This document shows, piece by piece, positions 5,871 to 25,509 of a stretch of 64,000 bases of DNA (position 1 is the stretch's first letter; the number at the start of each line of letters is the position of its first letter). The stretch lies in the NCBI GenBank assembly GCA_964016885.1, contig OZ024752.1:47554001-47618000 (forward strand), given 5' to 3'. Made by a program: the position numbers and the translations under genes. Source of the DNA: Eledone cirrhosa. Lineage: Eukaryota. The notes under the pieces were generated by a model. It made no database searches. It saw only the letters and a program-made list of their open reading frames with translations, and was not told where the DNA came from.

Positions 5871-6066
5871 AACGAAGGAAATGTGGTAATGAACCAGGTG
5901 GACCATAACGCACCAAAGTACTCAATACTTAGGGTAGTAGAGTGGGTAATAGGAACGAGTAGGACCCCGATGGCTGAGCTCAAGCCGTTTCGACGGCTAA
6001 TTCTGAGTCCAGAATTAGCCGTCGAAACGGCTTGAGCTCAGCCGTCGGGGTCCCACTCGTTCCTAT
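5871..6066. mobile_element. (TA)n-embedded fold-back element carrying a hammerhead 3' half (family P)
   Basis: Unique ~80-bp terminus plus near-perfect palindrome 5949-6066. Each arm reads stem II-GAAA-CGGCT-tgagctc-AGCCG-TC (one arm has ATC). Copies at 23418, 24034 and 25414. Confidence 0.75.
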
Positions 6067-6075
6067 ATATATATA

Positions 6076-6248
6076 TTGGTAGAGAGTTAGGCACCATGCT
6101 TTGCAGTATAGAGTTATGGCTCTTTACGTTCTGAGGTCAAATCCCGTCGAAGTTAACTTTGCCTTTCACCCTTACGGGGTCGATAAAATAAAGTACCAGT
6201 AATGCACTGGGTTAATTGCTGGCCTTGTGCCTAAAGTAGGAACAATTA
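6076..6248 (+). mobile_element. SINE family 2 copy
   Basis: Family core and tail ttgctggccttgtgcctaaagtag..acaattat. Confidence 0.8.
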
Positions 6249-6984
6249 TCATCATCATCATTACCATCCTCCAATTATTGACATATCGTCTCCTATTTTT
6301 TCTTCTTTTATTCAATAATTTTTTTCTGAAGCCGCAATCCCACCCCACGAAAAGAAAATAGATTTATAAAAAATACATTAAAAATATATAAAAAAATATA
6401 TATATATATAGAGAGAGAGAAGCAAGGAGCAGAGGATCTATAAAAAGAAACCAAACAGAGGCTATGATGGAGTGAGTATGATGTGGGCAATAGGGAACTG
6501 GGAGTGGATGGGCAGGGCATGGGTGGAGAGTTCTGAGATCTAACTGCAGGAAAGTAACAAATTATCTAGTTTGGTAAATGGGTGGCAGAAACTCCCCTAA
6601 TTTATCAATGATTATTTTCTGAACAAAAAAGAAAAAAAAAAAAAAAGAAAGACATATATGAATAAAAAAATTGGAGCCGGTGGGGGGTGGGGTATGAAGG
6701 GTTTATTTTATTTTGATTGTTGTTTTCTGTTGTTGTTTGTGGCTTTATAAAAAAATTTGATTTGATTTTGTTCTTCCTTGTGTGAGAGTGTAAGTGAAAA
6801 GGGTAACATAGATGAAGATATATGTGTATATATAAATGTATATATGTATATATATATATATAATTATGTATGTATACGTGTGCGTGTTTCATGTGCATGT
6901 GTATGTGTGTGTGTGGAGACAAAGACAAAAATTATAAATCCCATAGAACAAAAATAGTCTATCGCGGCTGGTTGTGGCAATGTG

Positions 6985-7790
6985 TATGGTTGGTGGTGTT
7001 GTGGTGGTGGTGGTGGTGTTGTGGTGGTGTTGTGGTGGTGGTGGAGGTGGTGGTGGTGTTGTGGGGGTGGTGGTGGTGTGGAGGTGGTGGTGGTGTTGTG
7101 GGGGTGGTGGTGGTGTGGAGGTGGTGGTGGTGTTGTGGGGGTGGTGGTGGTGTTGTGGGGGTGGTGGTGGTGGAGTGGTAGTGGAGGTGGTGGAGTGGTA
7201 GTGGAGGTGGTGGTGGTGTTGTGGGGGGGGGGTGGGGCTGATTGTGGGCGCGGGGGTTGTGGGTATCGGGTGGTGTTGTGGTGGTGGTGGTGGGGGAGTG
7301 GTGTTGTGGAGGTGGTGGTGGTATTGTGGGGGTGGTGGTGGTGGAGTGGTGGTTGAGGTGGTGGTGGTGATTGTGGGCGTGGGGGTTGTGGACGTGGGGT
7401 GGGGGTTGTGGGCGTGGGGTGGTGGTGGTTGTGGTTTTGATGGTGGTTATGGTGAGGTTTTCAATGAAGGTCAACTGTAGCAATTTGCCCAGCTTCTTAT
7501 GATAATAATGGTCTGTCTGAGACTGTGCCAATTGTTCATCATCGTCATCATTATCCCCCCCCCCAACCACCTCACCACCACCACTACCACTACCACCATC
7601 ATCAACACCACCACCGCCACCATCACCTCTGCCACATCCCTATCTATCATGACCATCGCCAACATCATCGCCATCATTATCACCCCCCCACCCCACACCA
7701 CCGTCACCACCACCACCACCACCGCCACCATCATCTCTGCCACATCCCTATCTATCATGACCATCGCCAACATCATTGTCATCAAATACA
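6985..7790. repeat. (GGT)n-rich then (CAC)n/(CAT)n-rich degenerate trinucleotide region
   Basis: Direct inspection. Confidence 0.9.
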
Positions 7791-7801
7791 CTGCCGCCGC
7801 C

Positions 7802-8015
7802 GGTAATGCACTGGGGGTAATTGCTGGCCTTGTGCCAAAAGTAGAAACAATTATTACAGGGTCAATACAATAAAGTACCAGTAATACACTGGGGTAATTG
7901 CTGGCCTTGTGCCAAAAGTAGAAACAATTATTACAGGGTCAATACAATAAAGTACCAGTAATACACTGGGGTAATTGCTGGCCTTGTGCCAAAAGTAGAA
8001 ACAATTATTATTATT
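7802..8015 (+). repeat. Three tandem copies (~78 bp) of the SINE family 2 3' end
   Basis: gtaat.cactggggtaattgctggccttgtgccaaaagtagaaacaattatt repeated three times. Confidence 0.85.
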
Positions 8016-8250
8016 ATTTTCTTAGTCTCTGTTATAAATTTTATTTTACACAAAGAAAAACACACACTGTATCGTCCTGTACTGTCTTTAATGTTTCCTT
8101 AATGTGAACCCTGAGTGACTTTTTTGTGGGCTTTCTCCACGAGCGACCCTCGGAAGTCCCCCCCCCCCTATTGGGGAATTTTTCTTTGTTTCTTTTTTTT
8201 TTGTTACATCCTCTGTTTTTGTTTTTTTTTACACGCAGAAATGCCCATTT

Positions 8251-23921: not shown

Positions 23922-24033
23922 ATTTCACTAATGCATTGTTTTTTCTATGTCCATACCTGCATTGTTTTGGCCTTATTACCTCATTACACAATGCTTCAAG
24001 TGAACTATAACCTCCTCCTATATATATATATAT

Positions 24034-24113
24034 AACGAAGGAGTTGTGGTAAGGAACCAGGTGGACCATAACGCACCAGAGTACTCAATACTTAGGGTAG
24101 TAGAGTGGGTAAT
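24034..24113. mobile_element. Family P copy lacking the whole palindrome
   Basis: aacgaagga.ttgtggtaaggaaccagg...gtgggtaat then (at)n, ending where the palindrome starts in the other copies. Confidence 0.8.
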
Positions 24114-24350
24114 ATATATATATATATATATGGAGTGGTTTGTATGTGTATATATTTAAATTGACTGCTTTATATATATATATAAGGAGTTGGGTGTATG
24201 TGTGTATATTTAAATTGACCGCTCTCTCTATATATATGAAATGGGCAAAGTGTGTGTATATATTTAAATTGACCACTTTATACATATATAATTAGCGGCC
24301 AGGGTATATATATGTATTGAAATTGACCGCTTTATATATATATATATATA

Positions 24351-25028
24351 TCATCATCATCATCACCGTTTTACGTCCGTTCTTCCACGCTAGCATGGGT
24401 TAGACGGGTTGTCCTGTTGTGGGCAGTGTCTGGTCGGCTGACCATGCCTTGCTCATACAAGAACTGATTTGGCTTGATTTCTACAGCTGGATGCCCTTCC
24501 TAACACCAACCTCATTTACAGTGAGTGCTGTGTGCTTTTTCGTGGCGCTTACACGTCCACTTTACAGTGTGGGCATCTATCTATCTAAGGCGGGTAAAAT
24601 TCCCGAGATCCATGGACGAGTTCTCTCCAGCAGTCTCTGTCCCTCATTATCGCTGCCATATCCTGCATCTCCAACAGACCAGTGTCTGTCCTTAGGGCAT
24701 CAACATATGTTAACCTTGGTCTTCCTCTTCTAGTGTGTCCATGTGTGGGCATATCATCATCATCATCATTTTCATTTTACGTCCGCTTTTTCCCTGCTTG
24801 CAAGGGTGAGACGGGAACTGATTCTGGCTAGATTTCTACAGCTGGATGCCCTTCCTAACACCAACCTCATTTACAGTGAGTGCTGGGTGCTTTTTTGCCG
24901 TGGCACCTCCACGACCACTTTGCAGTGGAGTGATATGGACCTATCATCCCTATCATCTCATTTCTACAGCTGAGTAAACTGGAGCAATGTGAAATAAAGT
25001 GTCTTGCTCAAGGAAACAACACATCACA
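24351..25028 (-). mobile_element. Two RTE-tailed SINE copies (second is family 1, 5'-truncated)
   Basis: Tails at 24351 and 24753. CORE-like aagtgtcttgctcaagg at ~24997. Confidence 0.75.
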
Positions 25029-25303
25029 TATATATATATACGGGATAACAGATTATTGTTATAGGGAGTCCACTTAGGTGTAGTCCAGTTATGGTACTCC
25101 GAGTAGTGGATGATATCACCGCTTGGCTAAGTTTAACTCAACAAGGCGTTTCCATAGTGATGTTGCGAGTACACGGTGATTTTTATGTAGTTTACACTTG
25201 GAGTAATGATAAATCAAGAAAGAAGAGTGACATGGTTTGCTATGCAATAAGGGCTTTAATCACATTGCTGACAATTGTTTCTCTGAACTGGTAGGTCTAG
25301 AGA

Positions 25304-25379
25304 TCGCTACCCGGCCTGTTTCTGCATCAATCGATCACCAATACTTTGTTATAACCAGTCAATTCATCAGAGCTAGCGA
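25304..25379 (-). ncRNA. Degenerate hammerhead-like motif
   Basis: Minus: tcgctagct-CTGATGA...GAAAC-ag-GCC-gggtagcga. Stem I pairs well; stem II and the cleavage triplet are decayed. Confidence 0.4.
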
Positions 25380-25413
25380 GAATGAAATCATATATATATA
25401 TATATATATATTT

Positions 25414-25509
25414 ATAGGAACCAGTAAGACCCCGACGGCTGAGCTCAAGCCGTTTCGATGGCTATGGTGCATTATGGTCCACCTGGTTCCTTACCACATT
25501 TCCTTCGTT
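25414..25509. mobile_element. Family P copy in opposite orientation with central deletion
   Basis: One palindrome arm (taggaac...gccgtttcga.ggcta) joined directly to the terminal tggtgc.ttatggtccacctggttccttaccacatttccttcgtt. Confidence 0.8.

Follow-up and report, generated by a model that had tools for sequence, protein, structure and literature searches.

What kind of event leaves half of a ribozyme, copied head to head, inside a run of TA repeats? The question is raised by a 64,000-nt stretch of the Eledone cirrhosa genome (GenBank assembly GCA_964016885.1, contig OZ024752.1, positions 47,554,001 to 47,618,000; referred to here as the window), which contains four copies of one element between positions 5871 and 25509. 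The copies were 91–96% identical to each other and (TA)n was found on the flanks of each. They are the 3' ends of a Penelope-like element (PLE) of the Hydra clade. Element positions are counted from the boundary of the tail: +1 is the first base of the tail, and -1 is the base with which the tail-less end (…GTTCCTAT) closes. The parts of the four copies are as follows.

5871..5948, minus strand: copy 1, 78-nt PLE tail (+1..+78), with its outer end within (TA)n; the 5' untranslated region (UTR) and the open reading frame (ORF) follow it directly in tandem copies
5949..6005, minus strand: copy 1, tail-bearing arm (-1..-57), the 3' half of the hammerhead
6006..6066, plus strand: copy 1, tail-less arm, exactly -61..-1, starting at an initiator-like A
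23418..23495, minus strand: copy 2, tail
23496..23558, minus strand: copy 2, tail-bearing arm (-1..-63)
23559..23622, plus strand: copy 2, tail-less arm (-64..-1)
24034..24113, minus strand: copy 3, tail only, its end being the second (tail-less) end point
25414..25464, minus strand: copy 4, tail-less arm (-1..-51)
25465..25509, plus strand: copy 4, outer ~45 nt of the tail; the partner copy ends inside the tail near +34

The initial annotation, made from the letters of the window, had described copies 1 and 2 as a unique end (~80 bp) followed by a palindrome with arms of ~60 bp, and this description was confirmed (unique end of 78 nt, self-match 88–94%), as was that of copy 3, which stopped at the point where the palindrome would begin. 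The unique end was read there as a terminus. The sequence is real and present in the copies but its orientation has to be reversed: it is the 3' tail of the PLE, because the sense strand is opposite to the earlier reading in copies 1–3. Copy 4 does have one arm joined to this tail, but only the outer ~45 nt of the tail was kept and the arm is the tail-less one; partners shortened within the tail in the same way were also found in loci L109, L194 and L198. A G precedes the tail-less arm of copy 1; this base could be a cap-derived G or the last base of the partner. All genome-wide counts given here are exact-pattern matches and thus lower bounds. The 23-nt core of the arm matched 13,714 + 13,622 = 27,336 times in the 3.0-Gb genome (reversed control 0), many more than chance would give, and 21,662 junctions of the tail end to TA were detected. 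Tail-only junctions were matched 297 times; such copies may reflect early abortion or later excision of the hairpin. No remnant of the PLE ORF was detected in the window by tblastn. Contigs of four runs (one study) aligned to copy 2 matched the family, and no listed piece spanned the copy, so that the centre of copy 2 is neither supported nor called into question by them.

Several of the first 30 loci had non-palindromic sequence upstream of the arm, as the initial annotation had asked for, and this sequence led into a 3' UTR and from there into an ORF with reverse transcriptase (RT) and C-terminal GIY-YIG motifs. In loci L031, L164 and L203 the ORF lay upstream of this same arm and tail, so the proposed linkage to a PLE was verified. 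Locus L164 contained a full tandem unit of 3,523 bp, in which the 78-nt tail continued into the 5' UTR, 90 nt before the ATG. Such read-through junctions from tail to 5' UTR were matched 310 times genome-wide. The ORF comprised 717 amino acids from the ATG, with YRDD and VIY..YIG motifs that could be read directly. Most of its 63 listed matches had no internal stop and were 94–96% identical to the query. Arrays of three to four full 3.5-kb units with mostly uninterrupted ORFs were observed at L179–L182 (contig C1, 91.47–91.49 Mb) and in other read-through rows; they are candidate source elements or candidate products of multimeric or circular templates.

The ORF matched no family in a Pfam search and a sequence search of the PDB returned nothing below E 7; its homologue P0092 (36% identity over 705 amino acids) passed the Pfam RVT_1 cut-off. 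Assignment to the clade is based on a set of features that the accessible part of Craig et al. 2021 (PMC8557442) gives for the C-terminal endonuclease-positive PLEs of the Hydra clade, including Hydra-1_Obim. These are a single ORF with RT and C-terminal GIY-YIG (core without CCHH, by eye), a DKT motif (SDKTGN), the CxCX5C linker (CNCPDRSIC), CxxC and CxH beside the conserved E and N (CNLCSEE and CKH, by eye and unaligned), insertion into (TA)n and a hammerhead in the pseudo-long terminal repeat (pLTR). The part of Hydra-1_Obim printed there could be aligned by eye with the ORF. The family differs from the clade as described there in its unit of 3.5 kb (generally <3 kb), in a tail of 78 nt (30–40) and in RWR at the RWK position, where P0092 has RWK, and it counts more than 21,000 insertions that are mostly mini-palindromes. 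Its hammerhead is unlike that printed for Hydra-1_Obim, with a U3-A8 core, a loop II of ~45 nt and a stem III of 5–6 bp, and thus the element belongs to another family. The general PLE layout was present as well: a pLTR or partial tandem, an adjacent inverted 5'-truncated copy and a tail at one end. As far as the accessible text of Craig 2021 (Fig. 2) and Arkhipova 2013 (PMC3846280) goes, this is the canonical insertion, matched down to the partial tandems (L150, L164, L179–182).

The arms were earlier recognised as stem II, GAAA, stem III, GUC and stem I' of a type I hammerhead, with palindrome centres in the stem II/loop II region. Both points were borne out and the 5' half of the ribozyme was found in the longer copies. 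The strand CUGANGA, which had been expected as the missing part, occurred in none of the 60 intact copies. Their 5' core was instead TTGAGAA (33), TTGATAA (10), CTGAGAA (10), TTGAAAA (4), TTGAAGA (2) or GTGAGAA (1), which corresponds to U3-A8 in 47, C3-A8 in 10, U3-G8 in 2 and another combination in 1 (60 of 63 parsed copies). A U3-A8 core has been reported for PLE ribozymes of Schistosoma (Cervera and de la Pena 2014, accessible part), while the accessible text of PMC6155905 says nothing on variants of the core. Intact 5' cores were matched 4,906 times genome-wide. The type I features (core 3–9, G10.1-C11.1, GAAA, NUH and three helices) were all present, and 96% of the cells were paired in an alignment of 14 copies. 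No hammerhead was reported by Rfam in the window at the gathering score, nor in an intact copy at E<=10, and unconstrained folding of L031 did not form the hammerhead (z -1.5). As intact hammerhead copies exist in the genome, the ancestor reconstruction suggested for a cleavage test is unnecessary. Arms of loci L009, L087 and L237 carried a deletion that runs precisely from one copy to the other of an 8-nt direct repeat around stem III, which suggests RT slipping across the hairpin.

How the two arms relate to each other could be read from long copies. When 30 distinct long loci were mapped on L164, 24 were resolved as two head-to-head truncated copies with the ends +78 and -1, and the other 6 were equal or unresolved. 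The tail copy was the longer one in 12 of the 24 and the tail-less copy in the other 12; at locus L152 the lengths were 203 nt for the tail copy and 1,601 nt for the tail-less copy. Neither copy was templated by its partner, because each holds sequence that is absent from the other. The two end points are fixed and the two lengths are independent, and the long copies fit two independent starts of reverse transcription.

In short copies the most frequent clean stop lay at the initiator-like A within loop II. Among the 101 arm matches in the first 23.6 Mb of contig C1, 17 reached past -70 (11 elements) and 84 did not. Palindromes with 0–13 nt between the two loop II flanks were matched 5,289 times genome-wide. 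We fetched 79 palindromes, a biased sample chosen partly via the loop II-flank pattern; their ends lay mostly at -54..-67 with a peak at -60/-61, and the arms were joined bluntly, by overlaps of 1–4 nt or by short inserts. The table of arm ends is strict on mismatches, so that 2 variant centres score 0.

When an arm ended at -61, the next base was C in 2,181 matches and T in 276 genome-wide, while the parent base beyond -61 would give A or G (60/60). The first 100 C rows were counted by hand: in 40 the C was untemplated, in 48 it could be explained by a partner starting with C, 9 were a subfamily variant and 3 were other cases. Nine elements in these rows had C on both arms around a centre of 0–2 nt. 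In the fetched sample C followed 8/11 unambiguous -61 ends and 10/59 other ends (p=0.0005). Arms with this cap-type end were matched 3,932 times; in 0 of the 30 inspected did the partner extend beyond -61, which a template with its own end at this position would predict. Copying of an RNA cap would be expected to leave such a C, often on both arms; for L1 and SVA, the accessible text of PMC3287187 explains an untemplated 5' G by copying of the cap. PLE promoters have been located in the pLTR (Schostak 2008; Arkhipova 2013, PMC3846280, accessible parts). In 57/60 parents the A at -61 lay within TTAGTC, TCAGTC or TCAGTA, 29–31 nt after a TATA-like 8-mer. These hexamers and the 8-mer resemble the consensus initiator and TATA motifs. 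In loci L011, L105, L036 and many other rows, 3–18 A were added to the complementary DNA (cDNA) right after -61, which may be due to the RT stuttering on UUU or adding bases without a template.

Among 30 loci with tail-to-5' UTR junctions, 7 elements consisted of an arm, the tail and 64–820 nt of 5' UTR and ORF start, followed by an arm from about -58..-64; in L172 this junction of arm, tail and ORF start to another arm was repeated identically. The 5' end of the ORF mRNA thus served as the template in some cases, and transcripts from 3' pLTRs may be a further source.

A second stop coincided with the predicted cut site of the ribozyme. Palindrome centres at -17..-23 were matched 413 times, compared with 4 for the control. 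A hand count of the first 50 elements of this -20 class gave 22 with both arms exactly at -20 plus an insert and 8 more with one arm there; 6 were blunt and ambiguous, 8 had one arm at -23 and 6 were other cases. The first added bases were 12 A, 8 T and 6 C, besides 9 single A/T pairs. Since this is no excess of C, the -20 class serves as an internal control for the cap reading of -61. The tail and TA flanks were present in 15/15 fetched elements of the class, and four junctions among the read-through loci started exactly at the GGGG after GUC. The -20 insertions are indirect evidence, from genomic junctions, that the non-canonical PLE hammerhead cuts in vivo.

We propose that the stump insertions in (TA)n arise by two target-primed reverse transcriptions from internal RNA sites 78 nt apart, followed by run-off and head-to-head joining, and we give this reading a probability of about 0.75. 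Both target strands would be nicked and primed by the element's protein, by analogy with in vitro data on PAc, the Poseidon element of Anolis. The two starts would lie at -1 and +78 of the RNA, and both cDNAs would run off its 5' end before being joined to each other. The position -61 would be a capped transcription start inside loop II of the hammerhead; RNA from this start would never have contained the 5' half of the ribozyme, hence its lack in the palindromes. The position -20 would be the RNA 5' end left by self-cleavage. End joining would then connect the cDNA ends, and a few bases might be lost, overlapped or inserted at the junction. For long copies, the possible origins are priming on the 3' repeat, priming on RNA in multimeric or circular form, and a template jump.

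Several observations weigh against this proposal. The RNA ends at -61 and -20 are likely ones, deduced from DNA junctions. Helices I–III had no two-sided changes in 14 copies, the hammerhead was the minimum free energy fold in just 2/4 copies folded, and 10/60 cores carry the C3-A8 mismatch. In ~57 of the first 100 C rows the partner arm may supply the C. Ends at -60 were at least as common as at -61 (35 arm ends compared with 21, counted in 77 tail-oriented elements), and the scatter from -54 to -67 means that trimming or several starts must be assumed. At -60 the next base was G in 11/14, like a template slipping onto a nearby repeat, and so templated inserts do occur. The TATA spacing is weak evidence because the motif varies and its first bases belong to the invariant stem II. 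Mixed short/long copies exist, a few in number (L045, L070). In 46/56 short elements both arms had the same subfamily block, which also fits a fold-back and under the two-start proposal means that both cDNAs would usually come from the same RNA or source. Finally, 0/16 full-length tandem loci stopped at -61; long copies therefore need another template or an efficient jump.

Chimaeric arms were considered as a proof of two RNAs and set aside as weak: among 56 elements L083 was the one clear two-subfamily case, one further case was based on a single base and two others were CpG decay. Loci L010 and L015 have one and the same single-base arm difference, but it affects the tail arm of one element and the tail-less arm of the other; this hints that their source carried two repeats that were not quite identical.

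An extension that gives the ribozyme a role appears possible to us, though doubtful. With the promoter in loop II, the mRNA would start with half a ribozyme, which does no harm, and end at a complete one that cuts at -20. RT starts would sit only near the cap, so that the body could be copied only after a jump like that of retroviruses, in which the -61..-21 repeat is crossed to reach the 3' end made by the ribozyme. Every insertion would then begin as a pair of strong-stop cDNAs and the mini-palindromes would be failed jumps. The seven elements with end-to-end jumps, one of them repeating its junction, and the absence of -61 stops from full-length loci speak for this extension. Two observations speak against it: long arms are coupled with long and short with short ones, and by eye no exchange of markers across -61 was seen in long copies. 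Priming of long copies on the 3' repeat, or on RNA in multimeric or circular form, would explain both more simply. If the extension is true, the PLE hammerhead gains a job, and the tail, the pLTR and the inverted copy would be explained in one scheme.

Among the rivals of the two-start proposal the one that survives best, which we regard as unlikely, keeps twin priming on full-length RNA and explains the stops differently. Here -61 would be a roadblock (a protein-bound loop II or a small hairpin), the C would come from terminal-transferase activity and -20 would be a pause at the three-way junction. The spread of ends over ~13 nt, a weak hairpin predicted over the stop stretch and the 8/50 elements of the -20 class with one arm reaching -23 agree with it. 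Against it stands the C excess, which is specific to -61 and absent at -20. Independent stalling would also produce many copies with one long and one short arm, yet no such copy was among the 30 inspected partners or, in the sample of the first 101 arm matches, among the 8 long elements whose partner could be resolved.

The self-primed fold-back favoured by the initial annotation, in which a tail-primed cDNA turns in stem II and copies itself and the hairpin tip is later remodelled, is in our judgement improbable, and for long copies largely refuted. It would account for subfamily variants common to both arms, for centres within the stem II arm and for the tail arm being more often the longer one in short copies (39 vs 23, 15 equal). 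However, the tail-less copy was longer in 23/77 short copies and in half of the resolved long ones; such copies cannot come from a folded-back tail-primed cDNA, and a tail-less cDNA cannot supply the tail. A 3' end templating itself could not give zero-loop centres or C on both arms, it would have no reason to stop at -1 rather than copy the tail, and the chimaera L083 does not agree with it either.

It had further been suggested that the palindrome may itself be mobile, which we considered in the form of a miniature inverted-repeat transposable element (MITE)-like DNA element or a short non-autonomous RNA. This has very little probability: the outer ends and TA flanks are the same and certain centres were met repeatedly (7 and 6 times among 79), but 56 elements had 41 distinct centres, and the recurring ones were spread over several subfamilies and occurred in either orientation. 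Each palindrome thus probably arises afresh. Its arm variants match autonomous subfamilies and its ends are not terminal inverted repeats. A DNA MITE, which the initial annotation had named as the refuting outcome, also disagrees with the one-sided tail, the variable centres and the continuity with an RT ORF; target-site duplications are unreadable inside (TA)n. Equally remote is the collapse of long inverted insertions into short palindromes after insertion: long inverted repeats are generally unstable and tail-only copies could be excisions, but a deletion would not add C at one base or stop exactly at -20, and the genome still contains young long copies whose inverted arms are 98% identical.

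Other repeats of the window were observed beside the four copies. Positions 23743–23925 are occupied by an element of another family that likewise consists of a tail and a palindrome, here with CTGATGA separating the arms, and whose relatives adjoin loci L006 and L072. Its unique end has the motif 'AGTACTCAATAC' in common with the tail of the studied family; it is possibly another PLE and 'AGTACTCAATAC' possibly a shared recognition motif. An insert after (TA)n at 22452–22640 has CTGATGA at ~22506 and GAAA ~70 nt downstream; it may represent one more PLE end with a hammerhead. About 50 nt of an abundant repeat resembling a short interspersed element (7803–8019, 15578–15624, 18731–18971, 32554–32601, 44811–45058, 57726–57766 and 59877–59928) matched the PLE 3' UTR at about -600..-653 with ~80% identity, which may reflect a captured fragment or a shared origin. 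A common interspersed repeat formed two inverted pairs, each ~355 nt apart: 22197–22297 with 22651–22751 (98% complementary) and 22739–22836 with 23192–23289 (91%).

The layout, the clade, the TA targeting and the ribozyme were already known. The origin of the inversion is left open or ascribed to self-priming in the accessible text of Craig 2021 and Arkhipova 2013 (the latter proposing self-priming for PLE inverted junctions), whereas two independent starts and fixed stops are favoured here. PAc gives a close parallel. In the accessible text of Frangieh et al. 2024 (PMC11167929) both target strands are cleaved and extended in vitro and the tail lies between the two RT starts, which predicts the layout observed here; an AT-rich target and priming near the mRNA 5' end are shared as well. 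In that text, the RNA used by PAc is uncleaved and none of the RNA-seq reads has its end at the ribozyme site, whereas hundreds of insertions were found here at the predicted cut site; inverted copies are left unexplained there and a cap signature is not reported in that part. The non-LTR retrozymes (bioRxiv 10.64898/2026.07.22.740005, accessible part) are likewise short PLE derivatives that are non-coding and contain type I hammerhead sequence, but they are tandem repeats with complete ribozymes. We rejected this identity for the window copies, which are head-to-head half ribozymes without a lineage of their own. A plant retrozyme, in the accessible description, has its transcription start upstream of the ribozyme, unlike the studied element.

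Two classical reactions are related in outline. Retroviral minus-strand strong-stop DNA is primed near the capped 5' end and runs off, and L1 twin priming uses two primers on one target. In the PLE both starts would be target-primed and lie on the same repeat, so that an inverted duplication would be produced rather than an inversion without duplication. The literature searched, which was thin on subscription papers, contained neither a readout of the cap or of the cut site nor a test of twin priming on genomic copies.

The origin of tandem and inverted PLE insertions and the role of the hammerhead are stated as open questions in the accessible part of Craig 2021 (PMC8557442). The thousands of fossil reaction products of this family give single-base predictions for both: RT starts at -1 and +78, a capped start at -61 and cut RNA from -20. 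The set of copies argues against the published self-priming and extends the in vitro two-start result to a genome and to a different clade. The same kind of junction census can be applied to any high-copy PLE, and PLE priming, promoter position and ribozyme use become testable at single bases.

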